64,000 bases of DNA, taken from positions 372,001-436,000 of the forward strand of contig OZ237753.1 of the NCBI GenBank assembly GCA_965178125.1. The letters run 5' to 3'. Positions 11,575 to 50,200 of this stretch are shown here, in pieces. Under the pieces are notes generated by a model. That model did not search any database and was not told the DNA's origin. It worked only from the letters and a program-made list of their open reading frames with translations. How positions within the stretch are numbered: position 1 is the first letter of the stretch; every line of letters starts with the position of its first letter. Source of the DNA: Bilabrum cf. latius (lineage: Eukaryota). The translations under genes were made by a program, and so were the position numbers.

Positions 11575-14500
11575 GTTTGAACGGCATTATACATAGCAAG
11601 TGTGCCATTTTGCTTTCTTGAGGGGCGGCTTGCAGCAGCTGTGCGAAGATTTCACGGCTATAGACTGCAGAACATTATTTCGATTTCCGATTCGACCGCT
11701 AGGTCGAAAGCATGTCATTCTTGTCCATCTGGCTGGTATGCACAATTGTTCTAGCATTTGCGTCAGACATGAATACTTAGGGACTGCGACGAAGGCTGCA
11801 AACGTCGGCGTCCAGCAGCCCTACGCCCAGCACTTCCCCTTCGGGCTCTCCCGCAGCACCTAGCTTGGTGAGGAGCGCTGTCAAGATTGCGCACGGAGTG
11901 GGTGGCGCTGGAGCTCCATCTCTATAGAATTCGGACATTTTCGGGGAGTCTGCTGCATCCATTTCAGACGTGGACGGTGACGGGGTTCCTGATGTGGCAG
12001 TTGGAGCGTTCTTTGCGGATGACGGGGCGACTGATTCTGGCTCGCTGTGGGTGCTGCTGATGAACAGCGATGGCACGGTCAGGGCCTCGCAGGAGATCTC
12101 GAGTACTTAGGGCGGGGCCAGCTACACGGCGTCAGCATCCGGCTTCTTAGGCTACAGCGTGTCCCACCTGGTGCAGTCCTGGGCCGAGAGCGAGCACCCT
12201 GGGCTGACCAGGCTCGTAGCTGGCGAGCCGGGTCACAGCGGTGGCGGGCGCGTGCTTGTGTTCCAGTTGAATCCAGATGCCACCGTGAACAGCACGCGGG
12301 TGATCGGCAATGGGGTGGGCGGTCTGCCGTCTGGCACCACGTCGAGCGGCGACGAGTTCGGGAGTGGGGTGTCCGGCCTCGTGGGCGACGTTGACAGCGA
12401 CAACTACAACGATGTGCTGGTGGTGGCTCGGTCCGCAGACTCAGGCGAAACCGACCTGGGTTCTCTGTTTGTGCTGTACATGAATGGAGACGACACCGTA
12501 CGAGCCGTATCCAGGATCAGCCAGGCTACTGGGGAGGGGCTGGACGTGCTGTCTCCGTCCCGGCAGCACCCGAGAGCCGTGACCGTGATACCTCCTCGCA
12601 CGGTTGATGCAGTATCTGACGTAGTCATTGGGTTTCCTACTCTTCAGATCGCCGCGCTTTTCTCGCTCGAGCCCAACGGTGGGGTGGACAGCACAGTGCA
12701 CGTAATTGGGGATGGGCTGGGCGGCATGCCCAGCGCCTCGATCGCGAGTGGGTCTGCATTCGGATACTCCATTGGCTCGATCGGCGACGCTGACGGTGAC
12801 GACGTCTTTGATATCGCAATTGGAGCACCGGCGGACACCACCGGTGGCATTGACAGCGGCGCCGTGTACATCCTGTACATGGCTGAGCACAACGCTACCG
12901 ATCCAGTGCGTGACTTCACCAAGCTCACTAGGCTGACAACGGGTCTGACTGGGATAATCCAGGCAGGAGGGCACATGAGGCCTGCCACAAACCATGCAGA
13001 TATTGATGGAGATGGGCGCATAGATCTTGTGCTGGGTATTCCCTTGGATGACACGGGTGGGACTGATCGCGGGGCAGCTGTAGTGGTTTTCATTGGGGGC
13101 TCCGTTGCTAGTTCTAGCCCGACACCGTCCGTGACACCATCCATCTCGCTGACACCATCCGCTACACCAGCTGCTATTGGGGCATTCGTGTCCGGAACGG
13201 CGATCGCGAACGGTGTAGGTGGTCTGTCTAGCGGTGCCGTAGGTACTGGGGGCGAGCTAGGCCGGTCAATGGCACCGCTGGGAGACATCGACGGAAACGG
13301 CTACGATGACGTGGCAGCGAGCGCCAATCTTGACGACAAGGTGTTTGTCTTTCTGCTTAACGAGGCAGGGACCGCTGAGAGCTTCACGCTGATCACGGAG
13401 GGCTAGGGTGGGTTCTCTGGTCAATCCATCGGATCGGATTATGCCACTGGAATCGGAAGCCTGTGGCAAGGACAGCCAGATGGTGATGACCCGAGCGCTA
13501 CTCGCTTGCTTGTGTCGGACCATTTCGGGGACGCTCCGGGTGGAGTGGGCATCGACGTGCTTCGGCTGAATGCGCAGGGGCGAGTGTCTTCTCACATTCG
13601 CTGGCGTAACGGCGTGAATGGTATCCCTTCGGGCTTGTGGGATTCGAATGACGAGGTCGGAAGGTATGTCGATGGTACTGATGACCTAGATGATGACGGA
13701 CTGTTCGATGCAGTCGTGGGCGCAAGGGGGGACGACGACGCTGGCAATAATGAGGGCGCAATCTACGTGCTGCTCTTGAACGGGGACGACACGGTGAAGG
13801 ACTACTTGAAGATTTCGGGCGCCAGTGGGCTCACTGGATTGGCGGCTGGTGTGTCAGACATGGGCTACGGTGGATCCAGCATGCCTTCGCTGGATTACGG
13901 CGGCACTGTGGACCTACTGGTTGGAGCAGCAAGATCAGGTATGGGCGGGAGCGAGCGAGGCGCTCTTGTGATACCTCGCCTCGGTATGCATGCGGATGGC
14001 ACCGTGTACGTGCGGACCCACGCTGTTCTGGCCAACGGACTTGGTGGAATCGGTGTCAGCGAGTTCAGTGACGGCAGCGCGTTCGGGCTCTCGGCAGGAT
14101 ACCTCGGGGAAATCAAGCAGGATGGGTACCCGTACATTGCAGTGGGATGCACTTGCTCAGGAGGCCAGCTGGTACTGATCGGGCTCGACCGTGCGACACT
14201 ATCCGCAGTGTCGCTCACCAGGCTGAGTCGCTCGACAGACTCGGTGCTTAGCGGACTGATGACTACATCGGCTGGTTTTGGGATTGGTATCGGAGTCCTT
14301 GGCAACGATACGTCCGTGCCAGCTGGCAGCTTGCGCATTGCTGTGAGCGCACCTACGGCTCCGATCGAGTCTGCAGGAACCGGCGCGGTGTATATTCTGG
14401 AGCTGCGCGTGGACCATCGGCTGTTTGCCAGCCCGAGTGTGTCGCCTAGTACGTCACCTACCCCAAGCGTGACCTCGAGTGTCACCCCGAGCACGACGCC

Positions 14501-17500
14501 GACACCCAGCATCACGCCAAGCATCACGCCTAGTGCGACGCCATCTGTTACGCCATCATCTTCACCCACCCCCAGCATCACTCCAAGCGTCACACCCACC
14601 GCCACTCCTTCGCCGAGTCCTGCCGCGGCCGGTGAGATAGTGCGTGTGACGGAGGTCGGTAGTGGGCTGAGTGGCTTTCCCTCCGGCCTCGTGGGATCAG
14701 GAGATGATCTGGGCTCTCGTCTGCAGGGCATCGGGGATCTGGACGGGGATAATACGCCTGACCTTGCGGTTGCCGCCCCAAACGATGACGACGGTGCCAC
14801 GAATGCTGGGGCCGTTTACGTGGTGTTCCTGCAGTCGGACAGCAGCGTGAAGCGCGTGCAGAAGATCTCGTCGCTGGCCGGCGGGTTGAACGAGACTTTG
14901 GCCTCAAGTGGGGAATTCGGAGGGTCGGTGGGCACCCTGATATAGCCCAATGGAGATGATCCCCACTTGCTCCGGCTGCTGGTGGGACAGCCGAGAGTTA
15001 CCAGCGGGACTGCATCGGAAGCTGGCCGACTGTGGGTGCTCCGGCTGTGGCCCGATGGCACCGTGGCACATGCGCAGCCTATCGATGGCCTGTAGGGCGG
15101 GCTGGAGCATACGGACTTCCACGACAATGATGATAAGACGTTCGGTCTCTCCTCTGCATGCGATATTGGAGACCTGGATGGGGACTAGCTGAATGACGTC
15201 GCAGTTGGCGCGCCTAACGCCAGAGGAGCTGGTAGTGACGATGGAGCTGTATATATACTCTTTATGCGCGCCAACGACACAACGAAAGGGTACTCTAAGA
15301 TATCAAGAGCTAGCACGGATGGGTTGAGCGCCCTAGGATCGAGCTATGCCGGTATTGGACGAAGCCTGACTGCAATGCCGGTATTTGATCCGAACAGCAC
15401 AGCGATTGTGCAGCTGGCAATTGGAGATATAGTTGCAGAGCGTGTCGTTTTGGTGAGCATTGGCGAAGGTGGGGCCGTGACTCCGGGAAGTGATTTAGTG
15501 AGGATAGGCCGCGGAGCGGGGGGCTTGTCTACAGGCGACGTGTCATCCTCTTCGCAGTTTGGCTCTGACGTGGAATACCTGGGTACAATAGGCGAATCTG
15601 GTCAGCATCTCCTGGCTGTCGGTGCGAGTGAGGACGACTCGGGCGATAACACCAACGGAGGCGCCATCTTCCTGGTTTTCTTGGATCCGGATGCAACTGA
15701 TCCGCTTTAGCCTGCCGTGGGCGTGGTGGAGATCAACATTGCCCATCCGCTTATTGATCCTCTCACTGGTGGTGGTGAGCAGCTGCAGTCGATTGCGCTG
15801 CTGGGCGATGTGGATGGTGACGGGCGCAATGACCTGGCGCTGGGCATGCCTAGAGAAACGGTGGAGTCCTCTGGAGATGGGGCGTTCCTGATCGCGATCA
15901 TGGGAGGGTCGGTGCCTAGCCCAAGCCCGTCTCCTTCACCTACTTCGTCCGTCACCCCAACTTCCTCACCGAGCAGCAGTCCGTCGGTCAGCAACACCCC
16001 GTCAGCCTCGCCGTCGTTTGGCAGCAGCCCGAGCCCCAGCATATCGCCTAGTCCGGGACCAGTGGAGGCGGTTTTTGAGGCGACTATTCAGAGCACTTTT
16101 GGGAATGGCTCAATTGCTGCACGACCAGCTTCCATGCCCACCGAGGGATACGTAGAATCGATGACCGTGGCTCAGTTGGGTGGTGGCCGCAAGATCATGG
16201 TAGTGGCCGCGCAGGGTGACCTCGATGCTCGTCGCATGCTGGCGCGACGCGGCTCCGCTGGCCAAAGCAGCCGTAGAGAGCTGCAGTAGACCTAGAATCA
16301 GGCGGTATTTGCTACGCAGCTCAACCCGATCACGCAAGTGCCTCTTGGACCTACCTCATCGATGCTGCCAGGCTCGGCTGGAGGCCTCAGCGCGGGCGCA
16401 CTCGATGGCATGGACGAGATTTCTCCCCTCCTTAGCCTGTGGGCTTCTCAGTCTTCGAGTGGGAACTGCACCACGATTGCAATTGGTCTGCCGTCTGCTG
16501 AATCGAATGGGACCAGGGTGGGAGCTGTCCAAATGCTTCGGCTGTGTGAGTTGTCCGTTGGAGGGCTTGTGCAGGTCTAGCTCGAATCAAGGCTGCAAGG
16601 CCTAGACCTGCAGCAAGCTGGGGTTCAGCCAGCACCCGACAGTCAATTTGGCGCGAGCCTCGCATTTTTCGAGGAGTCTTCGCTTCTGTACGCCGGAGCC
16701 CCTGCCTCTGGTGCGATCGTGGCGTTCTCGATGGACGAATCCTCGCTGGCCGTCGATTCGTCCAGCGTGGTGGTGCAAGTGGCCCCGACTCAGTTCGGAC
16801 TGCCATCCATTGGTTTCAGGCTGTCTGCTTCGATCGGACGCGTTGGGTCAAGCAACCTGCCGATGCTGGCGCATTCCTATCTGGTGCCAACGGGTGATGG
16901 TGGCTTCGAGACCCGCATCGGGCTTGCAGTGCTGGATGCGAATGGCACGAGGGTGGTGGCTTCCTCCAATTACTCTGTACCAGAAGCAGCACCAACCACA
17001 ACCAACCTTCTCAATGAGCCGGAGCAGTGCGCAGCGGCGATTCTGCTTGCAGATTTGAGCGGTGATGGCGCATCCGAGCTGGTGATGGGATGCCCCGGGG
17101 AGGCCGTCGTGGTCCTTGGCTTGGACCAGAGTGGCACGTCGTTCCAGTCGGAGAACGTTCTTCTCCGACCATCGGGCAACGATACTGAGGCTACAAGCGG
17201 CTTTGGGCGGTCTTTTGCTCTGAGCGGGCCCAATACGCTGGCCATCGGTATCCCGAATGCAGGCGAGGTACTCACGGTGAGTCTACAGACGGAGCTCGTC
17301 CCTGCCACGGAGCCGCCCTAGGTCGATGCCCAGATTGACATCAGCCATCTCGCGATCGACTACTGCAGTGAGAGGTTTGCAGCCACAGCTGCATCGACAG
17401 TCATCATCTCGGGCGCCAGCGGCTTTGGTCTCCTATACGAATGGGCCGTGGTTGTGCCAGCAGACTCTCAAAGTGCTGGCAGTATCACTTTCCGCAGCGC

Positions 17501-20500
17501 GCTTGAAACGCTGAATGAGAGGCTTCGTGCGCTGTCCACAGATCGTGTTTTTGCACGACGCAGTGAGATCGAGTTTGTGATGGTTGATGCAGCCGAATCG
17601 GCTGGTCTGAACTCCCGCACGCTGCCCAATCAGCCGTTGTATCTTCCAAGGGCTGGTCTCGGTGATACCATTAGCGTCAGCTTGCTCGTCAGGGCCAGGG
17701 ACGCCACTGTTCCTCTGTCAAATGCGGAGCTGGCATTAGCTGCACAGTCCAATGACGTAGCGTCTGCTGAAGTGCTCCTGATTGGGTCGCCTCGCGCTCG
17801 GCTTCTTCCGCTGGAGACCTACACTGTCGTTGGCCCTAGGACGACGGCACTTTCCCTTGGGCCGCAGGTGCAGCTCTGTGGCAGCGCCGTGGCGGCTGAT
17901 GCTGCTCGACTGGGCTTTGAATGGCAGGTTGTCGCCTCTGTTGCAGATGCAACTCTCAGTGAGTCACCTGCATTCGCTGTGGATGCGGCGGGAGGTGCAC
18001 TGCTGCCTGCAGATGCGATTGGCACAAACCGGACCGTGCTGGATCGCGTCACCGATGCTTAGACAGTCGGGATCATCGGCTCGCAACCTACCAGATCAGG
18101 CCTTGATGGTGGCCCGTTTGTGGCCTTCGATGTTGAACTCGGACAGCAGGCTGTGATCAATGGGGTCCTTGGCGGCAGTGGCGATGCTATGACTCACTCT
18201 CTTGATGGTGTTGAGTGGTTTGACGCGTTGTCCTACACTTCGACATCGCAGGGCAGGCCCGTGCTCGATGTGCCGGGCGGGGCGCTGCGATCTGGACACG
18301 CTTACGTCCTGGCCGTCCGAGCCGTGGTGCTGATTCAAGGAAACGGAGCTGATGGAGCACTGGTGCCACTGTCAGGTGCTGCCCTGCAGCTCACGTCGAG
18401 CTGGAGCCTGATTGGCGTCGGGATCAGGCGCAATCAGCTGCAGCTGCAGATTGAGGGCGGAGACAGAACTGTGTCGTAGGATCTAGGCTTCACCATCGGT
18501 GTTGGGGCGGGCCGCGGGGCACAGGCAGGCTTTGATCCCGATTTCGACTCGGGCGGGTCTTTCCCGGACCCTGGGTATGAGCCCGGTCGGGACCGTCCAG
18601 CGGCGTTGTTCACGTGGGACTGTACTGCCACGCCATTTGGATCGGATAGCAGCTCGCCATGTCTTGATCTGGTGCCTGGTGCAGGCAGCCTGACTTCCGA
18701 GTCAACTGTGACGATCAGTCCGAAGGACGCCGCTCCGTATGGCGGGAACGTGCTGAGACTGCTGGTGAATGTGACTGCCGGGCTCTCCATGGGCAGCGCG
18801 CGCCTGCTGTCTCGAAGCATGCAGGTGCTGACCACGCCAGACCCAGCCACGAGTCGAGAGGGCACCGTGACTGCACTGGTTCGAGTGGCACCAGCAGGAG
18901 TGCCCGCGCTGGAGATCACCACGGGCCGGACTCGATTCAGCCGCCTGTCGTCCAGTGGCGGGCAGGTCATTTTCTCGTCTTCGCAACGGCTGGTGCTGGA
19001 TGCCGTGATCAATTACGTGACTCCGGAGGAGGCGACCACGTCGTTGGCGGAGGAAGGCCTTGCTGTGTCCTGGGAGCAGGTGGAGGGACCTGCGGTACCC
19101 GGGGTGCCCAGTCAGGGACAGGTGGACCCACAACTGGGCGAATCGGCGGTGGTCACGTCGGTCGATGCTCGCAGTCTGGTCCTTCAGCAAGGCGTGCTGG
19201 AGCCAGGGACAGAGTACCGCTTCCAAGCGGTCGTCTCATTACTGGGCCAGCCTCTTTCTCCGCTGACTACCTCAAGTGCAGAAGTGGCCGTGCTGATAAA
19301 CCGACCCCCTGTGCCTGGCAGTGTCTCGGTGCAGCTGAGTCCTGATGCTGAGCCAGCATTGCCTCCCAGCTCTGGCCGCTGGGCAGGTTTGCCGCGCGCG
19401 CTAGTAGACACGCTGTCCATCGAGACAACTGGCTGGTCTGACGATCCAGACGATCTTCCGCTGCAGTATTCATTCTTTGTAGACCCGTCTGGAGCTGTGT
19501 AGCCATTTGCGAGTGCGCCCACACCGTCTGAGGTCCAGGCGACACTGACTGCACCGAGTGTGTTAGCTCTACGGGGAGACGCACTCAGCTCTTCGTTCGA
19601 CGCCGTATTGCCAGCGGGTAACACTAGCTCCGGTGAAGCGGTCAACATGTCGTTGATTATCGTTGCCACAGATCTGGCTGGTGGTCAGGGTGTCGTGGTG
19701 AAGGACCTGCGTGTCGCTCCGGCGCTGGACAGCAGCCAGGCTCAGAATGCCTCGATCGTGGCGGCAGCAGCAGCCGCCCAACTGGAGGTTGCAGCTGCAG
19801 CGGCAGCATCGTCCGATCCTGCTGCCGCCTTGCTGCTCGCTGGGGCCACAACCAGTCTGTTGGCTGAGTTGCCGGCTGGGAGCATGTCCAACGCTACTGA
19901 TGGTCCAGGGAACGATGTTCGAACACAGGTGCTGGACTTGCTTGCGTTCCTTGCGGCGAATGCAGAACCAACATCAGCAAACATGCAGCTACTGGCAGAG
20001 GGCGCTTCAGCGGCGCTCGCAGATCCAAGCTAGGTCTCATCCGGACAGCTGGACGCTGCCCTCTCTGCAGTAACGAGTGTCCTAGAGAACCGCTTGCGGG
20101 CTGGCAACGACCTCGGTCCGCTGGAAAATGGCCCGTCTTCTTCGATTCTGGAGACGATGCGCGCGACTTCAGATGCTGGACAGGCACTGGTGACACCGAC
20201 GGGAATCCGAGGTGGGAGCACTGTGGCGAGGCAATCTAACCTGCTCGGCCGGACTATGCTCGCAGGGACGATTCCAGGAGAGGGCCAGCGGGAGCTGCAA
20301 GCAGGAGGGGGCTCTGGTGGATTCCAGCTGACCATGGCAGTGGGTCGCTTGAACATTCTGGACGCTGGGGGCGATCCAAGCGGAAGCTCTCGGCGTGTGC
20401 AAGAAGGTGGCGATGCTGTTGTCCTTGGTCTGATTGCAGCTGGCGACTCAGATCCTGAGGAGATGGCAGCAATCGCGAGACGGTACTGCAGCGGCACCGC

Positions 20501-23500
20501 GAGCGATTTTGTGGCGGGAGAGGCCGGTGACTCACTCGGGGCGGAAGGAGGTGCGTTCGGAGTGGCGCTGGTAGACGCCGCCGCCAGGATCCGCCGACGT
20601 GCGCTGCAGACGGGAAACAACGACCTGCTGCAGGGCGTGGATGCGACGGCCATGGAGTGGGGAGGGGGCGCCGACACAGTGGCTTCTCCCTTCTCAACTG
20701 ATTCGGCTGGTCTTGGAGATGCGCTGGGAATCCCAATCGGGGAATTGAATACAACCCAAGGCGCCTTTACAACTCCAGGCCAGAACAGCCTGGTCGAGTC
20801 GAATCGCACAGTCGAGAGCACCACTGAGTCTTTGAGCGCAGAGCAAGGCTCCACTGTGAGCGTGGATCTGACGTCATCTGTGAGCGGCAGCCCGGTAGCA
20901 TTCGAGGCCCAGGACCTGGAGGCATGTGTGTTCGTGCCCAAGCCAGCAAACCCGCCAGTGCCGGAGGAGTACAGGAACTAGTCCGTACCAATTGCCACTC
21001 TCTCAGGCGATGGACCATCCGGTGTGCCGCAGCCCAACAGCACGGCAGATCTCTCGTCTCTGGATGTGCCTCAGACGTGCGACGAGATCCGGGCAGTGAA
21101 CATGTCCGAGCCTCCAAAGAAGCAAGTCTTTGAGTCGGAGTCAGTATCGCAGGTGGCTGCGTGCATTTACTGGAATGAGGTGGAGGAGCGTTGGCAGGGT
21201 GACGGCTGCCAGGCGGTGGCCTTCCTGCCCACAGGGACCGTCTGCAGGTGCAACCACCTGACGGACTTCGCCTCTCGCGTGGAGCTGCTGTTAGCCTCGA
21301 ACCGGGAGGTCTTCTCTGTGGGCACGAGGCCCATCACAACCGCTGACGTGCTGGCCAATCCTGAGACTTTCATTGCTATCGGAGCCATCTCGTTGGCCAT
21401 ACTGATATCCGCGGCTGGCACGCTGTGCATCGAGGAGCGCGACAGGGTGCGGTTTGCCAGGCGGCTGGTCAAGGATCCAGAGATCGCTGTGATGCGCGAC
21501 ATGGCTCGACTGGAGGGTGCAAACGAGCTGCTTGGCACTACACTGAGGGATCACCGGGATGCTCTGAAGGATGATTCGGTTCCTGTGGATGCGAAGGACA
21601 AGTCGCAGGCCTAGCTAGAGACTGCAGTGCAGGCCTCGCTGCAAGCACTGCAGTTCATTGCATACCCACAGCTGGGACCCGTCGCAGGCGATGCCTTGGT
21701 TGCGCCAGTCCCAAAGAAAGGCTCCAAGGCGTCCAAGACGAAAGGTAAGGGGAAGTTAGGCACGATGGCTCCGCTGCCCAAGTTCGAAGAGAAGCTGGCT
21801 ACCACCCGTGCCTTCCTACGCATCGAGATTGAAGCCCGAGCGGCCGAGCTGGCAGAGAGGCGAGTCAGGGATCATCCGTGCCGGTGCTGCTTTGATCTGT
21901 GCTGCAACGCGTCAGATCTATTGAGACAGTCGAAGAAGGGCGGTACATCGAGCGGGGGTGGGAGCATGTGTAGCTACTGCTGCAACATTTCGTCTTCCAG
22001 TGAGATGTTTGCAATCAGCAACGAGCTTAGGCGGGCCTTCCGCGGGATTGGCGGAGATGAAGACACTGCCGAGTCGAACGGAGCGTCCAAGAAGAAGGTT
22101 GCACGGCGCCGCCGAAGTTCCATGGCCTCAGCAGAGGAGCTTCTGTATCGCAGCCGTGCCAATTCTACCAGTTCGATCGGAAGAAACCGAAACAAGGCTC
22201 GTCGGAACTCGCTTGCAGCAGCCAAACCCGATCCTTCGCATTCGCACAACGCTGATGGATCGACTCGAGCAGTAGCATCCAAAATACCAGCATCACACAC
22301 GGTGGAATTGAGCTACATGGACCCCTGCTACCGCGGCTGGGTGCTTCGGATGGACGTGCTGCGGCTGTGGCTCGCCAAGCTCCCCTTCGAGCATGAGCTG
22401 TGCCAGGCATTCTGCCGCTTCAACTACCAGCAGGACCGCATCATGCGGCTAGGCCAGCTCATGGCCGTGCTATTCGCAGGCATGTTTGCAACTGCCTTCT
22501 TCTACAGCGTATCGGGAGCAGATGCGGCTGGAATCGACGAGGACTGCGACGGCGAGGACGATTTTGCGAATGTCCCTCGCTGGCAGCAGCTGGTGTTCTC
22601 GGTTCTTGCATCGATCGTGCAGGCACCGGTCAGCATGACACTCACGATTTTGTTCGACGATGCCGGCGAAGCTTGCTTCTTGGCTCGGTATTTCCCGATT
22701 TGGCGCGAGCTGGAGATCCGCCATGCTGCTGAGGTGCGGCTGGGCAAGAAGGTGGGCGAGCTGCGACGCAAGCTGCAGGTCCTTCAGGCTTCACTGGCCA
22801 ACTGGCTGGAGACCACGGAAGATGATGTGACTAGCGATGACGTGGACTAGCTCCGATTTGTTGGTGAGCTCCTTGGCGACGAGAAATCCGAGGTGCTTGT
22901 ATAGTAGGTGCTTGAAGGCAGGCGAGAGCGAGGGCGGGAGCAGCTGGCCAGTGCGCAGCGAGAGCTATTGTCCATGGGCAGCTCCAATGCTTGGTCTAGG
23001 CAGGACGACTCGCGGATCAGCCGAGATGTAGGTATCACCGGCAAGGCAGGCGCTGCATCGTCGTCAAAGCGCCATCAGCTTGCACGTGCACCGAGCGCTA
23101 GCATCGTGCAGGCTCGCGCGCACGCCACTGCTCTCCGCTTGCAAGTCATCCGAGCGGTCCGCGACCTCGGCGACTTCATGGCGCACCTGAGTCGCTCGGA
23201 GATCAGCTACATGGGGTACACCTGGTCATGGAGGTGCTTCGACCTGTGCTGCTGTTCCGGCATGGAAGATCGACTAGCCGTTGGGCACGACCACCAGCGG
23301 CGCGTTGCTGCTCTCTGCGCGCACTTGCTCTTGGCCTTGGACCACGCGGGCGAAACGGAGCAAGAAATGCAAGAGAAACGCCAGGTCGCAAATCGTGCCC
23401 TCACTGCACTGCAAAACCATCCGAAGGGACCAGCCACCGCAGATATGCTCCAGCCAGTCGTGGAGCTGCCTGCACTGTTCAACCCCGTGGCTCTCGGCTG

Positions 23501-26147
23501 GCGCGCGCCTCCTACCCTGTGCCGCCGGCACTGCAGCTGCCTAGTGCGGTGTTGCAACCGCGACGATGACCAGCAGCCGCTCTTCCTGGTACAGCAGATG
23601 GCAGCCGATGGCCGGCCTTACGGGTGCTGCCACGCCCGGCAAGATTCCCCAGATGATCCCACGGATGACTGGGAGGACGAACTAAACGAGGATGAAAAGG
23701 AGCATGGCAGGATTGAAGTCACCAACGATGGATCTTCCACCATTGCTACCGGTTCAGAGTCAGGAGTCAACCCCGATGGACCCGATGGACCCGATGCGCC
23801 TGCGCCTGTGCCTCCCCCAACTGTCGCTAGTCCTTCCACAGTGCTTGTGGGAGGTGCGCTTCGGCATTCTCTCGAACAGGAGATGTACTGCCAAATGTGC
23901 GACTGTTGCGAGTTTGACCTGCTGGATCCGTTCCGATGCGTGTGTTCCGTTGTCCGGCCGGCGATGCGCGGCACGATGGATCTTCACGACGATCAAGTAG
24001 CCTCCAGAGCGGCCGAGCTAATGTTTGCACTGAAGATTACAGACTCGCCTGAGCACTCCGTGTCAGCTCGAGCAGCCGAGGCTTCTGCAGCTACTGGTGC
24101 CGAGACCAACCTGCCCACGAGCCCGGACAGACGCGAGACTCCAGCTGAGCACGAGCCCATGGATGATGTTGGTGTTCAAGTTGACGAGGTCGACATCGGA
24201 CACGTGACCGAGGCATCCAGGGCATCGACGCAGGGTGTCGATCAAGATGACTCCGCACGTCAGGTATCCGGTGGCACAGTTGATTCATCTCCCGCACTGG
24301 ATGAGAGGCTCAGCGCGATGATCCCAGGCTTCGATGCGGACTCGCCTGAGCACTCCATGTCGGCTCGAGCAGCCGAGGCTTCTGCAGCTACTGGTGCCGA
24401 GACCAACCTGCCCACGAGCCCGGACAGACTCGAGACTCCAGCTGAGCACGAGCCCATGGATGATGTTGGTGTTCAAGTTGACGAGGTCGACATCGGACAC
24501 GTGACCGAGGCATCCAGGGCATCGGTGCAGGGTGTCGATCAAGATGACTCCGCGCGTCAGGTATCCGGTGGCACAGTTGATTCGTCTCCCGCACTGGATG
24601 AGAGGCTCAGCGCGATGATCCCAGGCTTCGATGCGGACTCGCCTGAGCACTCCATGTCGGCTCGAGCAGCCGAGGCTTCTGCAGCTACTGGTGCCGAGAC
24701 CAACCTGCCCACGAGCCCGGACAGACTCGAGACTCCAGCTGAGCACGAGCCCATGGATGATCTTGGCATTCACCTTGACGAGATATACATCGGACACGTG
24801 ACCGAGGCATCCAGGCCATCGATGCAGGGTGTCGATCAAGATGACTCCGCGCGTCAGGTATCCGGTGACACAGTTGATTCGTCTCCCGCACTGGATGAGA
24901 GGCTCAGCGCGATGATCCCAGGCTTCGATGCCATGCCAGTGGCGGAGAAGAATGACTACAGGCAGGCATACTCCTTGCTGTAGCGAGGCACGCAGCGTGC
25001 GCGGTCCGGTTCGCAGGCCAGTCGGCGTGCGAGTCAACCGCTGGGACGTTTAGCCACGTCGCACGGTCCATCGTTGCGAGACTTGCTGAGGGAGACCATA
25101 GCAGACGAGGGGATGCAAGCCGCGGTGCGGGGCACGATTCTGCAGGAAGAGGGATCTTGGAGCGATGCAGTAACGCAGTCCTTAATTTCGTTCGCCTTGC
25201 TTGCTCTCGCGCTTGCCTTCATCCTGTGGTTCATCCTCGCCTTTGGACTAACCAGAGGAAGGGAGGTCATCTCGTCGTTCATGGTGACCTTCTGGGTATC
25301 GCAGGCCATCACATTCTTCGTGAACCAGCCGCTTGTGATGCTCGGCCTGCTGATCTGGGCCGTGACGTTTGCACCTCTGGTGGAGCGGTACTTCGGCTGG
25401 ATCCCTTGGTGCGGCACAGTAGATGAGTCGGCCATCTTGAAAGAGAAGCAGGTGCTGGCTGGCCGCATGCAGCACGTGGCCATGCTGCACGCGATCGGAG
25501 CAACTGCTGGCTTTGGTGCTGGGGACAGTCTCCTGGTGTTCTCCATGTCATCTGCACTCACGGCAGCCCTGGTGAAGCAGTTCGACCGACCGGAGGGTCG
25601 GGTGGATCTAGATGGCGAGCAGCGTGACGGCACGAGCGGGTCGATGAGGCGTGGGTCGAATTCCATGACCGGAGGCAGCAGCACTTCGGTCGCTGCGTCG
25701 AAAACTGTGCTGAATGATGATGTCGAAGGCCTTAAGGCGGTCGATGAAGACGACCCCGAGGCTGTGGAGCAGGCCCGCAAGAAGCGCGAGAAGAAGCAGC
25801 GGGAGGCGTTCAGGACCATGGAGTACCGGCTGCATGACATCTTGCTGCGGGAGTTTGCCAGGCTGCGGTTCAAGCTTGCTGTGGACGGCATCTAGAGCGC
25901 CATTGATGGCATTGTGGAGACTGTGGCTGATGCCGAGCGGGCCCTCGCTGCCCTGGAGGCGGAGCGTGTGGAGAGTACTGCGGGTGACTCCGAGTTGGGA
26001 GGCGCCGGAGACCTGATGGTTCGTGCGAGTCGATTGTCCGCGATGAAGGCTCGGGCGCGCATGGTGAAGCGCGTGCTCGCGGATGTGGTGCGCACCCAAA
26101 GGGGCAGGCTGCGTCCGGAAGTGCAGGGGGCGCTGGACGATATCGCT
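11575..26147 (+). repeat. Left arm of a large inverted segmental duplication (partner 29272..50659)
   Basis: Near-identical ORF pairs on opposite strands (e.g. 21627..22850+ vs 31960..33183-; 25074..25895+ vs 29524..30345-). Similarity extends about 135 bp upstream of both ATGs and stops after GACGATATCGCT. Confidence 0.95.
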
Positions 26148-26255
26148 GCAGAAACTATCCCTAGCGACTACAATACCCCTGTCGACAACAACTAGTATAG
26201 CAAGAGCAGCCCCAAACATCGTCGGGTATCATCTCGGGCTAGGCGGCGACTCTGA
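11712..26255 (+). CDS. Giant intronless FG-GAP propeller / REJ / GPS / multi-TM polycystin-1-like receptor, copy 1, about 4,847 aa, 24 in-frame TAG
   Basis: All main + ORFs from 12159 to 25914 share one frame. I translated every gap and found only TAG, with no TAA/TGA until TGA 26253-26255. Signal peptide plus LRRRLQ; four FG-GAP modules; REJ-like [69 protein letters not shown] (about 21159-21272); about 5 TM segments. Confidence 0.9.
24042..24932 (+). repeat. 297-bp (99-aa) coding tandem repeat x3 in copy 1; single unit in copy 2
   Basis: gactcgcctgagcactcc recurs at 24042, 24339 and 24636. Confidence 0.93.
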
Positions 26256-27020: not shown

Positions 27021-27211
27021 GCGGCGAACCAGACACAGTGGAAACTGCACTTCAGACTTGAAAGAAGAATGCTATGGCTTATGCTGCAATTAGTCTGCTG
27101 CGGCGCATCTCACTTCTGGCATGCCACCGAACACTACTGAATTCCCGGGTCGAACATGGCGCGCGTCAATGGCGCTACTGGAGTGGTTCTCGTATAGCCT
27201 CTTGCATGCCA

Positions 27212-27927: not shown

Positions 27928-28084
27928 ATCGCTCGATTTGCCACTGTCGATTCGCACCGTCACTGCTCTGACTCAACTGAACCGACGGAACCTTCACGAA
28001 CTAGCGGGTCAACGTGCCAGTGTGTCAACAAAGAATGTGGATTTTGCGAATGTAACCTAACAATTTAAGCCCAGCCGAGCTTTG

Positions 28085-28940: not shown

Positions 28941-28944
28941 GCGG

Positions 28945-29160: not shown

Positions 29161-29259
29161 GCGCGGCTTTAGTACATCTAGTGACATTATGAAACTTGGT
29201 TACGAAATTGATATGCATAATAAGAGGAACCCATGCTATTGCCCAAGCGCATGGAAAGT

Positions 29260-38200: not shown

Positions 38201-41200
38201 AGGTCTGGGCCTTGCAGCCTTGATTCGAGCTAGACCTGCACAAGCCCTCCAACGGACAACTCACACAGCCGAAGCATTTGGACAGCTCCCACCCTGGTCC
38301 CATTCGATTCAGCAGACGGCAGACCAATTGCAATCGTGGTGCAGTTCCCACTCGAAGACTGAGAAGCCCACAGGCTGAGGAGGGGAGAAATCTCGTCCAT
38401 GCCATCGAGTGCGCCCGCGCTGAGGCCTCCAGCCGAGCCTGGCAGCATCGATGAGGTAGGTCCAAGAGGCACTTGCGTGATTGGGTTGAGCTGCGTAGCA
38501 AATACCGCCTGATTCTAGGCCTACTGCAGCTCTCTACGGCTGCTTTGGCCAGTGGAGCCGCGTCGCGCCAGCATGCGACGAGCGTCGCGGTCACCCTGCG
38601 CGGCCACTACCATGATCTTGCGGCCACCACCCAACTGAGCCACGGTCATCGATTCTACGTATCCTTCGGTGGGCATGGAAGCTGGTCGTGCAGCGATTGA
38701 GCCATTCCCAAAAGTGCTCTGAATGGTCGCCTCAAAAACCGCCTCCACTGGTCCCGGACTAGGCGATATGCTGGGTGTTGACGATACTGATGGCGTGGGG
38801 CTGGAGCTCGGGCTGCTGCCAAGTGACGGCGAGGATGACGGGGTGTTGCTGACCGACGGACTCACACTCGAGCTCGGACTGCTGCTGACGCTGGGGCTTG
38901 AGCTGCTTGTCGGGCTTGAGCTGCTCGTAGGACTGGAGCTGCTCGATGAGGTAGGGCTGGAGCTCGGGCTGCTGCCAAGCGACGGCGAGGCTGACGGGGT
39001 GTTGCTGACCGACGGACTCACACTCGAGCTCGGACTGCTGCTGACGCTGGGGCTTGAGCTGCTTGTCGGGCTTGAGCTGCTCGTAGGACTGGAGCTGCTC
39101 GATGAGGTAGGGCTGGAGCTCGGGCTGCTGCCAAGCGACGGCGAGGCTGACGGGGTGTTGCTGACCGACGGACTGCTGCTCGGTGAGGAAGTTGGGGTGA
39201 CGGACGAAGTAGGTGAAGGAGACGAGCTTGGGCTAGGCACCGACCCGCCCATGATCGCGATCAGGAATGCGCCGTCTCCAGATGATTCTACCGTCTCCCC
39301 AGGCATGCCTATCGCCAGATCGTTGCGACCGTCCCCGTCCACATCGCCCAGCAGCGCAATCGACTGCAGCTGCTCACCACCACCAGTGATAGGGTCAATG
39401 AGCGGATGGGCAATGTTGATCTCCACCACGCCCACGGCAGGCTCAAGCGGATCAGCGGCATCCGGATCCAGGAAAACCAGGAAGATGGCGCCTCCGTTGG
39501 TGTTATCGCCCGAGTCGTCCTCACTCGCACCGACAGCCAAGAGATGCTGACCAGATTCGCCTATTGTACCCAGGTATTCCACGTCAGAGCCAAACTGCGA
39601 AGAGGATGACACGTCGCCTGTAGATAAGCCCCCCGCTCCGCGGCCAATCCTCACTAAATCACTCTCTGGAGTCACGGTCCCACCTTCGCCAATGCTGACC
39701 AAAATTACTCGCTCTGCAGCTACGTCTCCGATTGCCAGCTGCACAATCGCTGTGCTGTTCGGATCAAATACCGGCATTGCAGTCAGGCTTCGTCCAATAC
39801 CGACATAGCTCGATCCTAGGGCGCTCAACCCATCCGTGCTAGCTCTTGATATCTTAGAGTACCCTTTCGCTGTGTCGTTGGCGCGCATAAAGAGTATATA
39901 TACAGCTCCATCGTCACTACCAGCTCCTCTGGCGTTAGGCGCTCCCACCGCCACGTCATTTAGCTAGTCCCCATCGAGGTCTCCGATATCGCCCGCAAAG
40001 GAGAGACCAAACAGCTTATCAACATTATCGTGGAAGTTAGTGCTTTCCAGCCCGCCCTGCAGGCCATCGATAGGCTGCGCATGTGCCACGGTGCCATCGG
40101 GCCACAGCCGTAGCACCCACAGTCGGCCTGCATCCGATGCAGTCCCGATGGTAACTCTCGGCTGTCCCACCAGCAGCCGGAGCAAGTGGGGATCATCTCC
40201 ATTGGGCTATATCAGGGTACCCACCGATCTTCCGAATTCCCCGCTTGAGGCCAAAGTCTCATTCAACCCACCAGAGAGCGACGAGATCTTCTGCACGCGC
40301 TTAACCATGCTGTCTGACTGCAGGAACACCACATACACGGCCCCAGCATTCGAGTTTCCATCGTCATTGTACCTCGCTCCAACAGCCAGATCAGGCACTC
40401 CATCCCCGTCTAGATCGCCGATGCCATGCAAACGACAGCCCAGGTCATCTCCCGACCCCACAAAGCCAGTGGGAAACCCAGCCAAGCCACTACCGACCTC
40501 AGTCACACGCACTATCTCACCAGCCGCGGCAGGACTGGGCGATGGGGTAGCAGTGGGCGTGACGCTTGGAGTAATGCTGGGGGTGGGACTCGTCGAGGGC
40601 GTGATACTAGGTGTTGGGCTATTGGAAGGAGTTGAAGATGGACTGGGGCTTGGGCTAGGCACCGATCCGCCCATGATTGCGATCAGGAACGCCCCGTCTC
40701 CAGAGGACTCCACTGTCTCTCCCGGCATGCCCAGCGCCAGGTCATTGCGCCCATCCCCATCCACATCGCCAAGCAGTGCTACTGAGTGCATCAACTCACC
40801 GCCTCCTGTAAGCGGGTCAATGAGCGGATGGGCAATGTTGATCTCCACCACACCCACGGCAGGCTAAAGCGGGTCAGCTGCTTTCGGATCTAAGAAGATG
40901 AGGTAGGTGGCACCTCCGTTGGTTCCAGCGCCGGAGTCGTCCAACGGAGCTCCCACAGCCAAGACTACCTGTCCCGATTCGTCCATTTGGCCCAAATATT
41001 GAACCAGATGACCAAATCGCGTGTTACCTGCTACATCGCCTGATACGATGCCGCCTACTCCACGGCCCAGCTGCACAATCGAGCTGCCAGAAAAAACTGA
41101 CCCGTTGGAGTCTATTTCTACGAGAAGTATCCTCTCCGTCACAACTTCACCAATGATGAGTGTGAACACCGCCGTACTGTTGGCGTCAAACACAGGCATG

Positions 41201-44200: not shown

Positions 44201-47200
44201 CTAAGCCCATCGGATGCAGCCCTCGAAATTTTGCGGTAGTACCACACGGTATCATCGGTACGCATGAACAGAATGTACACGGCGCCATCGTTTAATGAAT
44301 CACCCTCTGCATCAGGCGCTCCCACTGCCACATCATTCAAGCTGTCGCCGTTAACGTCTCCGATCGTGCCGATAACATCTGAGCCAAAGCGCTTGTCGTC
44401 ATTATCATGGAACGATGTCCACTGCAGCCCGCCTTGTAGGCCATCGATTGGCTAGACGTGTGCAATTTTGCCATCGGGCCACAGCCGGAGCACCCATAAA
44501 CGCCCTGATTGCACTGCACTCCCAACGGTAGCTCCTGGCTGCCCTACTAGCAGCCGAGGCATCTCAGGATCCTAACCGTAAGGCTAATGCAGCCATCCAA
44601 CAGAAGCACCGAACTCACCGCTACCCTCAAGCGTCTCATTCAGTCCACCCGCTAGAGCCGAGATCTTCTGCACGCGCTTAACCGTGCTGTTCGAACGAAG
44701 GAACATCACGTACACCGCCCCAGCATTCGAATTTCCATCGTCATCGTACCTGGCTCCAGCAGCCAGGTCGGGCACACCATCCCCATCCAGATCCCCGATG
44801 CCCTGCAGGCGCTCACCCAGCGAATCGCCAGCATCCACGAGTCCGCTGGGGAAGCCTGCCAGGCCGCTGCCGACCTCATTTACACGGACAATGTCTGCAG
44901 CAGAGGCTGGGCTAACACTTGGAGTGGTACTGGGAGATGGAGAGACGCTCGGTGTAGGTGAAGACGATGGAGTGACGGAGGGGGTCACACTCGGGGTCGG
45001 GCTAGCCACAGCACCACCCATGAATGCCACTACCATCGCACCCCTCCCGACCCCACCGGTTGCATCTCCTGACATGCCGAAAAGAATATCGACACGACCG
45101 TCTCCATCAATGTCTGCATGAGCATTGCCAACACGAACCTCGCCGCTAACTTGTAGGATGCTGCTCAATCCAGCTGTTGTAGCCGTCAGCTTGGTGAAGT
45201 CACGCACAGGGTTCGTTGCGTTGTGTTCTGCCATGTACAGGATGTACAAGGCACCCTTGTCGGTGCCACCTGTATCATCGAGAGGCGCATCCACCACCAA
45301 GTCGAATATGCCGTCCCCATCCGCATCGCCGAGCGATCCAGCCGAAAAGCCGAAGAATGAGCCGCTAGCAATGGATCCGCTCGGCATGCCACCCAGCCCA
45401 TCACCGATCACGTGCACTGTGCTATTGATATTGCCAGTTGTGCCTTCAGCCAGCGAGAATAGAACCAGCACCTGGTCGCTGTCGGATCCAAGCGCCACGT
45501 CAGCAACACTGTGCTCGCTGCGTGGCGGCAGGACGCACATGGAAGACCCCAGGCGGGGCCGAGACGGTGACAAGCTGTTGAGTCCTTCTCCAACGACCTG
45601 GCTGATTCTTGCGTGAACACGCACCGTATCATCTCCGTTCATGTACAGGACGTACAGTGCGCCCATGTCCGCGCCGCCGGCATCCGCATCTCTAGCAGAC
45701 ACCAAGAGATCCCGATACCCATCGCTGTCTACGTCGCCCACGGATCCATCCACGCGTAATCCGAAGAGGTCTCCTGCAGCATTTCTGCCCGATGGTAGAC
45801 CGCCCAAACCATTGCTGATTGCCTGCGTGTAATTGACAGTGGCGTCCGCGTTTACTCTGAACACGAGTACGCGGCCACCGATGCTGTGCTGCGGCTCTCC
45901 AACCACTACCCTTGGCAGGCCAGGGTTGACACCACCAGGCTAGTCCAAGCGAGATACACTGTATCCCATCAGTCCGTTTTCACTTGCGATGTAGCTGGCT
46001 CCGCCCTACGTGCTCGAGATCTCCTGCGAGGCCCTGACCGTGCCGTCGCTGTTCATCAGCAGCACCCACAGCGAGCCAGAGTTGGAGGCCCCGTCATCGC
46101 CAAAAATGGCTCCAACAGCAACATCTTGCACACCATCTCGGTCGATGTCACCAACGGCTGAAAGCGCAAACCCGAAACCGTCAGAATTCTGCAACGACGG
46201 TGCACCGGGACCGCCCACTCCGTGCCCGATCTTGACCGCGGTTCTGACCACCCCGGGTGCGGCCGGGGTGGCTGTGGCTGAGCTAGTGGCGCTGGGTGTC
46301 GTGCTTGCCGTGATGCTTGGTGTGATGCTCGGCGTCGTGCTCGGGGTGACACTCGAGGTCACGCTCGGGGTAGGTGATGTACTAGGCGACACACTCGGGC
46401 TGGCAAACAGTCTATGGTCCACGCGCAGCTCCAAGATGTACACCGCGCCGGTTCCGGCAGACTCGAACTGAGCCGTATGTGCGCTCACAGCAATGCGCAA
46501 GCTGCCAGCTGGCACGGATGTATCGTTGCCAAGGACTGCAACACCGACACCAAAGCCAGCCGATGTAGTCATCAGTCCGCTAAGCACCGAGTCTGTGGAG
46601 CGACTCAGCCTCGTGAGCGACACTGCGGATAGCGTCGCACGGTCAAGCCCGATCAGTACCAGCTGGCCCCCTGAGCAAGCGCATCCCACTGCAATGTACG
46701 GGTATCCATCTTGCTTGATTTCCCCAAGGTATCCCGCCGAGAGCCCGAACGCGCTGCCGTCACTGAACTCGCTGACACCGATTCCACCGAGTCCGTTGGC
46801 CAGAACAGCGTGGGTCCGCACGTACACGGTGCCATTCACATGCATACTAAGGCGAGGTATCACAAGAGCGCCTCGCTCGGTCCCGCCCATACCCGATCTT
46901 GCTGCTCCAACCAGCAGGTCCACAGTGCCGCCGTAATCCAGCGAAGGCATGCTGGATCCACCGTAGCCCATGTCTGACACCCCAGCCGCCAATCCAGTGA
47001 GCCCACTGGCGCCCGAAATCTTCAAGTAGTCCTTCACCGTGTCGTCCCCGTTCAAGAGCAGCACGTAGATTGCGCCCTCGTTATTGCCAGCATCATCATC
47101 CCCCTTTGCGCCCACGACTGCATCGAACAGCCCGTCACCATCCAGGTCATCAGTGCCATCGACGTACCTGCCAACCTCGTCATTCGAATCCCACAAGCCC

Positions 47201-50200
47201 GAGGGGATGCCATTCGCGCCGTTACGCCAGCGAATGTGAGAGAACACTTGCCCTTGCGCATTCAGCCGAAGCACGTCGATGCCCACTCCACCCGGAGCGT
47301 CCCCGAAATGGTCCGACACAAGCAGGCGAGTCGCGTTCGGGTCATCACCATCTGGCTGTCCGTGCCTCAGGCTTCCGATTCCGGTGGCATAATGCGTCCC
47401 GATGGATTGACCAGAGAACCCACCCTACCCCTCCGTGATCAGCGTGAAGCTCTCAGCGGTCCCTGCCTCGTTCAGCAGAAGGACAAACACCTTGTCGTCA
47501 AGATTGGCGCTCGCTGCCACGTCCTCGTAGCCGTTTCCGTCGATGTCTCCCAGCGGTGCCATTGACCGGCCTAGCTCGCCCCCAGTACCTACGGCACCGC
47601 TAGACAGACCACCTACACCGTTCGCGATCGCCGTTCCGGACACGAATGCCCCAACAGCAGCTGGTGTAGCGGAGACGCTGGATGTCGGCGAGATGGATGG
47701 TGTCGCGGACGGTGTCGGGCTAGAACTAGCAACGGAGCCCCCCATGAACACCACTACAGCTGCCCCGCGATCAGTCCCACCCGTGCCATCCAAGGGAATA
47801 CCCAGCACAAGATCTATGCGCCCATCTCCATCAATGTCTGCATGGTTTGTGGCAGGCCTCATGTGCCCTCCTGCCTGGACTATCCCATCCAGACCCGTCG
47901 TAAGCCTAGTGAGCTTGACGTAGTCACGAACTGGATCGGTAGCGTTGTGCTCAGCCATGTACAGGATGTACACGGCGCCGCTGTCAGTACCACCAGCATC
48001 GTCACCATGTGCATCTACTACCAAATCAAAGACAGCATCTCCATCTACGTCCCCAATTGCTCCCGAGGCCGCCCCAAAAAACGACCCGCTCTAGATGGCC
48101 CCGCTGGGCATGCCGCCCAGCCCATTCCCGATCACACGCACCGTGCTATTGACCTTGCCATCAGAGCCGAGCGAGAAGAGTGCAAGAACTTGATCAGGTG
48201 CGGCCCCCAGCACCACGTCAGCCACAGCGCCTGTGGTTCGTGGCGGCAGCACGCACATTGATTCGCCGAGGTACAACCGCGAAGGAGATAGGGCGCTCAG
48301 CCCTTCCCCTGTTGCCTGGCTGATTCTGGACACACTCCGCACCGTATCATCTCCGTTCATGTACAGCACGTACAAGGCGCCCAGGTCGGTTCCACCTGCG
48401 TCAGCAAAGGTTGCAGACACCAATATGTCGCTGTAACCGTCACCATCCACGTCACCGACCAGCCCGCTGACCTTTGCACCGAACTAGTCGCCAGCCGCGT
48501 GAGTACCAGAGGGCAGCCCACCCACCCCGTTGCTGATTGCCTGCGTGCTATTCACGGTGGCATCTGGATTCATCCGGAACACAAGCACGCGGCCACCCTC
48601 ACTATTTGTTGGCTCGCCCACGACCAGTCTCGGGACGCATGGCTGCGTTGCTCCACAAAGGATCTGAGACACTGAAATACCGAAGTTGCCATCGACTGCT
48701 GGTGTGTAGCTGGCCCCGCCCTACGTGCTCGAGATCTCCTGCGAGGCCCTGACCGTGCCGTCGCTGTTCATCAGCAGCACCCACAGCGAGCCAGAGTTGG
48801 AGGCCCCGTCATCTGAAAGACGCGCCGCAACGGCAATATCCGGAGTACCATCCCCATCAATATCACCGACAGTAGCTGTGGTGTGCCCCAAAACATCCGA
48901 GTTCTCAAGCGACGGTGCACCGGGACCGCCCACTCCGTGCGCGATCTTGACCGCGCTCCGGACCACCCCGGGTGCGGCCGGGGTGGCCGTTGCAGTGCTG
49001 GACGGGGACGACGACACGCTCGGAGTGGTGCTTGCCGTAATGCTTGGTGTGACCGAGGCAGAAGCAGTGCTACTTGGGGATGATGAAACGCTGGGTGTGA
49101 CGCTGGGTGTGGGACTGGTGCTGGCTACCGAGCCTCCCATGAGTGCCACCATGATGGCACCGCGGTTGGTCCCACCCGTGTCATCCAGAGCCATCCCAAC
49201 TATTAAATCCACGCGCCCGTCCCCGTCGATGCCGCTATTGAAGCCACCCACGCGCAGGTGCCCTCCTGCCTGAACTATCCCACTCAGGCCCGATGTCAGC
49301 CTAGTCAGCTTGGTGTATTCACGAACTGGATCGGTTGCGTTGTGCTCAGCCATGTACAGGATGTACACTGCGCCGCTGTCAATGCCACCGGTGGTGTCCG
49401 CTGGTGCTCCAATCGCGATGTCAAAGACTTCGTCACCGTCAGCGTCGCCGATCGAGCCAATGGAGTATCCGAATGCAGACCCACTCGCGATCGAGGCGCT
49501 GGGCATGCCGCCCAGCCCATCCCCAATCACATGCACTGTGCTGTCCACCCCACCGTTGGGCTCGAGCGAGAAAAGCACGGCGATCTGAAGAGTAGGAAAC
49601 CCAATGACTACGTCAGATGCTGCATCAACCGTGCGAGGAGGTATCACGGTCACGGCTCTCGGGTGCTGTCGGGATGGAGACAGCACGTCCAGCCCCTCCC
49701 CAGTAGCCTGGCTGATCCTGGATACGGCTCGTACGGTGTCGTCTCCATTCATGTACAGCACAAACAGAGAGCCTAGGTCGGCTCCACCTGAGTCTGCGGA
49801 CCGAGCCACCACCAGCACATCGTTGTAGTTGTCGCTGTCAACGTCGCCCACGAGGCCGGACACCCCACTCCCGAACTCGTCGCCGCTCGACGTGGTGCCA
49901 GACGGCAGACCGCCCACGCCGCTGCCGATCACCTGCGTGCTGTTCACGGTGGCATCTGGATTCAACTGGAACACAAGCACGCGCCCGCCACCGCTGTGAC
50001 CCGGCTCGCCAGCTACGAGCCTGGTCAGCCCAGGGTGCTCGCTCTCGGCCCAGGACTGCACCAGGTGGGACACGCTGTAGCCTAAGAAGCCGAATGCTGA
50101 CGCCGTGTAGCTGGCTCCGCCCTGCGTGCTCGAGATCTCCTGCGAGGCCCTGACCGTGCCGTCGCTGTTCATCAGCAGCACCCACAGCGAGCCAGAATCA

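Follow-up and report, generated by a model that had tools for sequence, protein, structure and literature searches.

Probable reassignment of UAG to glutamine in two giant inverted genes of a GC-rich eukaryotic contig

The locus

The stretch of DNA analysed here, 64,000 nucleotides of contig OZ237753.1 (positions 372,001 to 436,000, forward strand) from the Bilabrum cf. latius assembly GCA_965178125.1, is called the window below and is numbered from its first letter. The window is about 60% GC and looks like eukaryotic nuclear DNA with spliceosomal introns. It holds two giant genes arranged tail to tail as an inverted duplication: gene 1 (copy 1), on the plus strand at 11712-26255, has 4847 codons, and gene 2 (copy 2), on the minus strand at 29260-50520, has 7086 codons. 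Read with the standard code, the region is a series of open reading frames (ORFs) of 300-700 codons; the two giant frames emerge once TAG is read through, with 24 in-frame TAGs in gene 1 and 35 in gene 2. When they are read in this way neither gene has an in-frame TAA, the sole in-frame TGA of each is its terminator, and no frameshift is found across the 11933 sense codons of the two genes. Because the two other same-strand frames contain 110-217 TGAs and 9-24 TAAs each, the open frames extend far beyond chance. What, then, does TAG mean in these genes?

Both giant proteins follow one plan: a signal-peptide-like start leads into FG-GAP modules, and these are joined by a REJ domain, a GPS motif, and transmembrane and tail regions. 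The FG-GAP propeller modules, of about 420 residues each and separated by Ser/Pro/Thr-rich linkers, number three in gene 1 and eight in gene 2, so that copy 2 has five extra modules relative to copy 1. The REJ domain of gene 1 occupies residues 2357-2680 (Pfam E = 1.3e-10) and its GPS motif residues 3150-3187 (Pfam E = 4.4e-9); a hydrophobic stretch, read by eye from the translation, follows directly after the GPS motif. Gene 1 thus has the trait of polycystin-1 or REJ-type receptors in which REJ is followed by GPS beside a membrane span. A PLAT domain and a polycystin channel-like membrane region also define that family, and neither gave a Pfam match in gene 1 at E <= 0.001. The homologue search, at near lengths, gave no match to residues 1450-3350 of gene 1.

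DNA identity between the copies is 85-98.5%, depending on the block, and their similarity begins 138 bases upstream of both ATGs. The part of gene 1 that encodes the cytoplasmic tail has three tandem repeats of 297 bases (99 residues; 24042-24931, 96% matches), and copy 2 has one (30488-30783); a contig from the public sequencing run X6, discussed below, contains a 594-base skip that matches this difference.

TAG and CAG in the two copies

A sequence-only reading of the window had proposed that TAG and CAG interchange in both directions between the two genes, like synonymous codons. In our codon alignment of the copies (4710 codon pairs), the sites with TAG comprise 20 TAG/TAG, 2 TAG/CAG, 2 CAG/TAG and 1 TAG/GAG (copy 1/copy 2), four of the five differences being CAG. 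Copy 1 has TAG at 12108-12110 (+) and 15093-15095 (+), facing CAG in copy 2 at 50122-50124 and 40057-40059; copy 2 has TAG at 38017-38019 (-) and 37477-37479 (-), facing CAG in copy 1 at 16791-16793 and 17331-17333. These are the four swaps that the reading had listed, two in each direction, and all lie where it placed them. It had also described most other TAGs as common to both copies, including the tandem TAGTAG at 22902-22907 (+), and the 20 TAG/TAG pairs agree; the tandem stands in copy 2 at 31903-31908. Missing from its account was the sole difference not involving a glutamine codon, TAG at 15708-15710 (+) against GAG at 39442-39444. Three metagenome relatives of the genes, described below, have CAG, CAG and CAA at the second codon of the tandem and GAT at the first.

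The other FG-GAP modules can serve as outgroups for some of these sites. Modules g2_m2 and g2_m4 have TAG at the site of 12108, where the change was most likely from TAG to CAG in copy 2. At the site of 15093, modules g2_m5 to m7 have CAA, CAG and CAG, and the TAG was most likely gained from CAG in copy 1 after the duplication. At the site of 15708 other modules have TAG, CAG and CAG; the ancestor likely had TAG or CAG, with copy 2 then changing to GAG. Given the polarities at 12108 and 15093, TAG has been lost as well as gained since the duplication, with the proviso that gene conversion among the modules may blur such calls.

How readily do the two codons exchange? The first position of CAG/TAG shows a C/T difference at 4 of 142 sites (0.028), which is close to the 7 of 259 (0.027) for CTG/TTG, a synonymous leucine pair; first-position C/T differences that change the amino acid are found at 11 of 1114 sites (0.010). 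In quantitative terms, then, the phrase "like synonymous codons" is apt. With four events the contrast to the amino-acid-changing class is weak and suggestive only (Fisher p = 0.08), and the proof of synonymy rests on the relatives, not on the four swaps.

Constraint on the copies and support for the T calls

Between the copies dS is 0.087 and dN is 0.023, a dN/dS of 0.26, and the 537 base differences are distributed over codon positions 1, 2 and 3 as 134, 87 and 316 (chi-square p = 3e-36). Setting TAG to Q, E, L, Y, K, W or stop gives dN/dS values of 0.261-0.270. Since the value barely depends on the meaning of TAG, it is evidence of selection but not of which amino acid TAG encodes. The first TAGs of the two genes are at codons 23 and 72, and so nearly all of the measured constraint lies downstream of a TAG. 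The two giant genes are functional paralogues under purifying selection, not decaying copies.

The window stretch is present in nine public sequencing runs from four studies, and four of the runs were compared with it over 8000-27999. With 40 of the 430 mismatch rows visible, TAG sites were judged from contigs that have 0 mismatches or exactly the number of differences that separate copy 1 from copy 2. Contigs of run X2, which is possibly the source sample, match the window with 0 mismatches across CAG 16791 and 11 TAG codons, at 8882; 16287, 16293 and 16578; 20979 and 21612; 22848, 22902 and 22905; and 24981 and 25893. The X5 and X6 contigs, which come from two further studies, show against copy 1 precisely the differences that copy 2 shows (119 mismatches and a gap of 6 bases in one case; 119 plus 15 and 22 in the other), and they are therefore copy 2 letter for letter, covering eight TAG sites each.

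One might suppose that the copies are decaying pseudogenes, or that the TAGs are errors of sequencing or assembly. The standard code does break both genes into many pieces, and public gene calls hold just such pieces; the 440-residue predicted protein P0126, derived from the European Nucleotide Archive (ENA), is exactly the TAG-bounded piece of gene 2 that forms the window ORF 44584-45906 (-). The tests refute this explanation: the frames have neither frameshifts nor in-frame TGA or TAA, the dN/dS and the excess of third-position changes point to selection, and the T calls recur in other runs. The long open frames of the relatives, below, argue in the same direction.

The X5 and X6 contigs also bear on the possibility that the standard code is kept and U-to-C editing of the RNA turns TAG into CAG in the mRNA. 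Editing would place glutamine at exactly these sites, and amino-acid comparisons cannot separate it from reassignment. Contigs of both runs skip a 102-nt GT..AG intron in a carboxylesterase gene of the window, the X5 contig doing so with 0 mismatches while retaining the T of the TAG at 8882, and the X2 contig runs through the intron. From two GT..AG-type skips we infer that X5 and X6 are cDNA. If this guess about their nature is right, the unedited T at 8882, and the identity of the X5 and X6 contigs to genomic copy 2 across their TAGs, argue against editing. A further argument is that only TAG is found in frame, never TGA or TAA, which general U-to-C editing would also repair. We consider editing very unlikely indeed.

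The amino acid at TAG

The nearest comparisons are with the repeat modules and with fragments of close relatives. Among the 13 repeat modules, 18 columns contain TAG. In module families A and B, whose members are 65-76% identical, TAG falls in 14 columns, and in 8 of these another module of the family has CAG or CAA; facing TAG are Q 10, D 5, E 4, S 4, A 3 and others 9 (35 distinct alternatives). Five fragments from Logan assemblies (P0161-P0165) are 87-98% identical to the genes and fall slightly outside the copy pair. At the three sites they cover where both copies have TAG (gene-1 codons 1623, 2597 and 3090), P0161, P0162 and P0165 have Q in all three. Logan fragments also end just short of gene-1 codons 1694 and 2774, at which one or both window copies have TAG; P0165 stops just before the codon that is TAG at 38017 in copy 2. 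All of these comparisons, including that of the two copies, share a weakness, in that CAG is one transition from TAG and mutational nearness could mimic synonymy.

More distant proteins were brought in through an FG-GAP profile, built from the best 150 of 59281 HMMER matches to the modules; removal of the window's own P0126 left 149 proteins with 2091 domain hits. Against this profile of unrelated proteins, 17 TAG columns score, as ln odds against background, Q 8.5, E 3.4 and S 1.1. As a control, sense codons were decoded by the same procedure, leaving out codons with fewer than 8 usable columns, and 55 of 58 were assigned correctly (55-56 of 58 for log-odds scoring overall). Random sets of 17 columns were decoded correctly for CAG in 256, for TCG in 294 and for GAG in 285 of 300 draws. 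Per column, the Q log-odds averages 0.50 for TAG, 0.44 for CAG and -0.75 for TCG.

The most telling comparison is with four metagenome loci (L001-L004) that encode relatives with 36-47% amino-acid identity to gene 1. Their open frames run to 2280, 2133, 750 and 355 codons and contain 19, 35, 7 and 5 in-frame TAGs, mostly at positions other than those of the window. Frames of this length, with TAGs elsewhere and at such a distance, also speak against decay or error. Ordered pairs of lineages were compared, with gene 2 excluded as a near-duplicate of gene 1. The partner of TAG is Q in 50 of 134 observations (38 CAG, 12 CAA) and in 30 of 71 columns. The fraction of codons with a Q partner is 0.37 for TAG, 0.43 for CAG and 0.35 for CAA, and 0.01-0.07 for GAG, TCG, AGC, TTG, AAG, TGG and TAC. 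The Q share rises with the identity of the flanking sequence, from 42 of 81 (at least 0.34) to 29 of 56 (at least 0.50) and 12 of 17 (at least 0.67), and the two codons stand within fully conserved contexts such as CRFNYQ[Q/TAG]DRIMRL and VTFW.S[Q/TAG]AIT. With an empirical substitution table from the same alignment, the log-likelihood of TAG is -305.5 as Gln and -363.4 as the runner-up, Lys, a gap of 58 ln units. When each sense codon with at least 40 observations was decoded with its own counts left out, 61 of 61 were right. This cross-lineage comparison is the strongest layer of the evidence, and mutational nearness matters little in it.

Might UAG instead encode Glu, Lys, Ser or Leu, meanings of the kind reported in other lineages? 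The copies do differ once by TAG/GAG; some module columns have S, D, E or A opposite TAG; and the solved esterase closest to the window's carboxylesterase has E at its TAG site. Scoring the profile by raw emissions also ranks Ser first for TAG, but this procedure was rejected because it decodes only 31 of 58 control codons correctly and calls CAG 'A'. The calibrated profile puts Q well above E and S, and in the cross-lineage test, with its clean controls, Q leads not only Lys but also S by 110 and E by 118 ln units; serine codons face Q in 0.03-0.04 of observations, as against 0.37 for TAG. Leu is outside the six best meanings in the profile test and outside the eight best in the cross-lineage test. 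Another amino acid is, in our view, very unlikely. Judged by these comparisons, UAG positions correspond to glutamine positions.

TAA and TGA remain stops

Eight gene models end inside the window, six with TGA and two with TAA, and the frame of relative L001 ends with TGA. In-frame TAAs, which as sense codons would mark the code of NCBI table 6, number 0 in the window (17523 codons) and 0 in the relatives (5518 codons). At 60% GC the window's lack of in-frame TAA is weak evidence alone. The relatives, at 52-57% GC, have 71 CAA and 127 CAG, and next to their 66 in-frame TAGs about 37 TAAs would be expected under that CAA:CAG ratio if TAA shared the meaning of TAG. TAG alone is reassigned; TAA and TGA act as terminators and do not encode amino acids. 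In L002 (1-6399) TAG is the commonest of the codons read as glutamine (35 TAG, 32 CAA, 26 CAG). TAG makes up about 13% of the glutamine codons of the giant genes in the window, against 38% in L002.

It is possible that the code is ambiguous, with UAG read as Gln inside genes and as a context-dependent stop at some gene ends, as other stop codons are in Condylostoma and karyorelict ciliates. Gene 1 offers a candidate, a TAG that precedes its TGA by 20 codons, at a point beyond the end of copy 2, and the gene ends were themselves defined by reading TAG through. Yet every gene end in the window is TGA or TAA and that of L001 is TGA, and the last two TAGs of a tetratricopeptide repeat (TPR) gene in the window lie, by eye, within a repeat pattern that continues past them. 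The nucleotide that follows TAG (G 35, C 25, A 18, T 9) is distributed much as it is after CAG, and so no context of the readthrough type is seen. We regard an ambiguous code as unlikely.

Neighbouring genes

The remaining gene models are ORF-based, with ends set by reading TAG through. A third FG-GAP gene (2-2446, minus strand) runs off the window and has 5 in-frame TAGs. At 4006-7359 (-) lies a gene with Reeler, EGF, DOMON and cytochrome b561 matches. One in-frame TAG follows the ATG at 7143, and 2 further in-frame TAGs lie in the upstream open frame that holds the Reeler match. As this match is upstream of the first ATG and spans just the final third of the Pfam profile, at least one more upstream exon must belong to the gene. 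The carboxylesterase gene (8063-10552, +) has its one in-frame TAG at 8882-8884, and its 102-nt intron (GTGAGT...CAG) is at 8595-8696.

Beyond gene 2, a SAP18-like model at 50843-51889 (-) has 1 in-frame TAG and ends with TAA; its Pfam score, 24.1, does not reach the curated cut-off of 27. The C-terminal part of an ABC-transporter ATP-binding domain is encoded at 59414-60355 (-), with 2 in-frame TAGs and a terminal TGA. The TPR gene, with CLU-like and TPR_12 repeat matches (60465-63863, -), has 13 in-frame TAGs and ends with TGA. Some of its TAGs stand, in a register read by eye, at repeat positions that elsewhere hold Q/H/D, Q/L/M or E/Q/K; a homologue search returned only 5 distant TPR proteins, which say nothing on TAG. 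A Glu-rich repeat ORF at 52111-55413 (+), a weak gene model without a Pfam family, has 5 in-frame TAGs and ends with TAA; within it, 53131-54434 is made up of 3.2 tandem copies of a 417-base unit. A protein-kinase exon is the lone TAG-free model among the eight besides the giant genes. Together, the seven others and the two giant genes make nine models with 87 in-frame TAGs and 0 in-frame TAA or TGA in 17523 codons. The Reeler-DOMON-cytochrome b561 and FG-GAP/GPS/REJ content is, we presume, reminiscent of holozoan or amorphean protists.

Two intergenic features were also noted. The segment 10668-11334 has a summed contig depth of 1193 in the DNA run X2, against about 47 on neighbouring single-copy sequence, and of 151 against 17 in X5. 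These depths suggest that it is a dispersed repeat present in roughly 25 copies; an acidic minus-strand ORF (10729-11466), for which no Pfam family was found, overlaps it. Within the 3 kb that separate the giant genes, the 92 bases at 27617-27708, bounded by CT..AC (GT..AG on the minus strand), are skipped in X5 and X6 contigs, suggesting an intron of an unannotated minus-strand gene. Rfam gave 0 matches in the window at gathering thresholds, and no rRNA was found.

Discussion

The explanation that best accounts for these observations is very probably a nuclear reassignment of UAG to glutamine in which UAA and UGA still terminate translation, the pattern of NCBI table 15. The related environmental organisms represented by the metagenome loci share this code. 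This is the interpretation that the sequence-only reading had reached, and the three outcomes that it had named as contrary to it, mostly non-glutamine codons opposite TAG, a dN/dS near 1, and T calls that reads do not support, were not observed. Codons opposite TAG are mainly those of glutamine; dN/dS stays at 0.26-0.27 when the meaning of TAG is varied, which with the intact frames and the third-position excess favours its view of synonymous drift over nonsense decay; and contigs of X2, X5 and X6 reproduce the T.

Several observations weigh against this interpretation. When only long profile hits are used (146 hits of at least 150 columns), S at 1.7 is above Q at 0.9, although this filter also fails for CAG itself, which is called Q in 73 of 300 subsamples. 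Many of the TAGs are at variable positions, as the D, E, S and A residues in the module families attest, and the TAG of the carboxylesterase, also at a variable site, faces E or I in solved homologues. The last (C-terminal) block of the giant genes, 507 codons, has a dN/dS of 0.98, a value that comes from only 26 changes (6.7 synonymous, 19.3 non-synonymous). Among blocks dS ranges from 0.017 to 0.255, a spread that suggests gene conversion or uneven age; taken with the extra modules of copy 2, it suggests module gain and loss together with gene conversion, rather than one clean duplication. X5 is marked 'probably DNA' and none of the runs is listed as RNA, so that the RNA nature of X5 and X6 is a guess. 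The definition of gene ends by TAG readthrough, already mentioned, belongs here too. Finally, the decoding machinery is out of sight: ARAGORN found 0 tRNA genes in the window, and eRF1 is not among its genes.

How might such a code operate? UAG must be read through efficiently, because a protein with 35 UAGs would otherwise neither be made nor be kept under selection. By analogy with described cases, a tRNA-Gln with anticodon CUA, which a single base change would derive from tRNA-Gln(CUG), would pair with UAG and not with UAA, and an altered eRF1 would no longer recognise UAG while still recognising UAA and UGA (PMC5304391); for Iotanema a substitution in the GTS motif of eRF1 is reported. On this reading TAG and CAG are synonymous and interconvert by C/T transitions; some 20 TAGs of the two copies date from before the duplication, and a few have been lost or gained in each since then.

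Codes of this kind are known. UAG as Gln, with UAA and UGA as stops, is reported (PMC5304391, PMC11687900 and PMC9161772) for the fornicate Iotanema spirale and the ciliates Protocruzia tuzeti, Hartmannula sinica and Trochilia petrani. The present case shares with these table 15 carriers the reassignment of UAG alone, its meaning as Gln, the retention of UAA as stop and the scatter of TAG through ordinary coding sequence, and it fits the pattern on every feature tested. It is unlike them in its GC content of about 60%, its multi-gene contigs, its giant genes, open and collinear wherever checked, and its GT..AG introns. UGA is the commoner terminator here (6 of 8), whereas phyllopharyngean ciliates and Iotanema are described as having UAA as the preferred or dominant stop. 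Cytochrome b561, FG-GAP, REJ and GPS content, and relatives in environmental metagenomes, are further departures from the described carriers. In our judgement such gene content and such relatives give no hint of a gut-dwelling anaerobe, nor of a ciliate whose chromosomes are gene-sized.

Other systems are less close. Both UAA and UAG encode Gln (NCBI table 6) in many ciliates, in Dasycladales, Cladophorales and Trentepohliales among the green algae, in hexamitid diplomonads and in others (PMC2984419 and PMC5304391). There too a stop codon has become Gln and TAG interchanges with CAG, but TAA in the window is not a sense codon and ends two models. UAG is listed as Leu in one clade of phyllopharyngean ciliates and in the rhizarian exLh, and as Ser in the green alga Scotinosphaera (PMC11687900 and PMC5304391); UAG is likewise uncoupled from UAA in these systems, though the amino acid differs. 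Code 15 is described in crAss-like and other gut phages, where TAG is Gln (PMC9523058). Those are bacterial viruses with late-gene recoding, unlike the cellular eukaryotic genome with introns considered here.

Is the lineage new? The first nuclear codes that give UAG and UAA separate meanings were reported in 2017, and only a handful of lineages is so far known to have them (PMC5304391 and PMC11687900). Within open-access text without supplements we found no paper on stop codon reassignment and UAG in Holozoa, and no GC-rich non-ciliate lineage with UAG as Gln besides Iotanema. We suggest tentatively, at slightly less than an even chance, that the window and the four metagenome relatives belong to an undescribed, environmentally spread, GC-rich clade, neither ciliate nor fornicate, that reassigned UAG to Gln independently. 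The kind of code is known but rare; that the lineage itself is undescribed is about an even bet.

There is a practical side to this. Public gene predictions contain these genes only as TAG-bounded fragments (P0126, P0161-P0165), and proteomes and annotations of the clade made with the standard code therefore suffer heavy fragmentation and need to be made anew with table 15.

If the suggestion of an independent reassignment is true, the rare UAG-only nuclear code would have arisen once more, independently, in this clade. Every such case amounts to a natural experiment on the ways in which release factor and suppressor tRNA separate two codons that are nearly always coupled. The present one may be particularly open to study, in that two recent paralogues show both gain and loss of TAG and relatives are available at several depths, so that the history of TAG use, from about 13% to 38% of glutamine codons, should be traceable.

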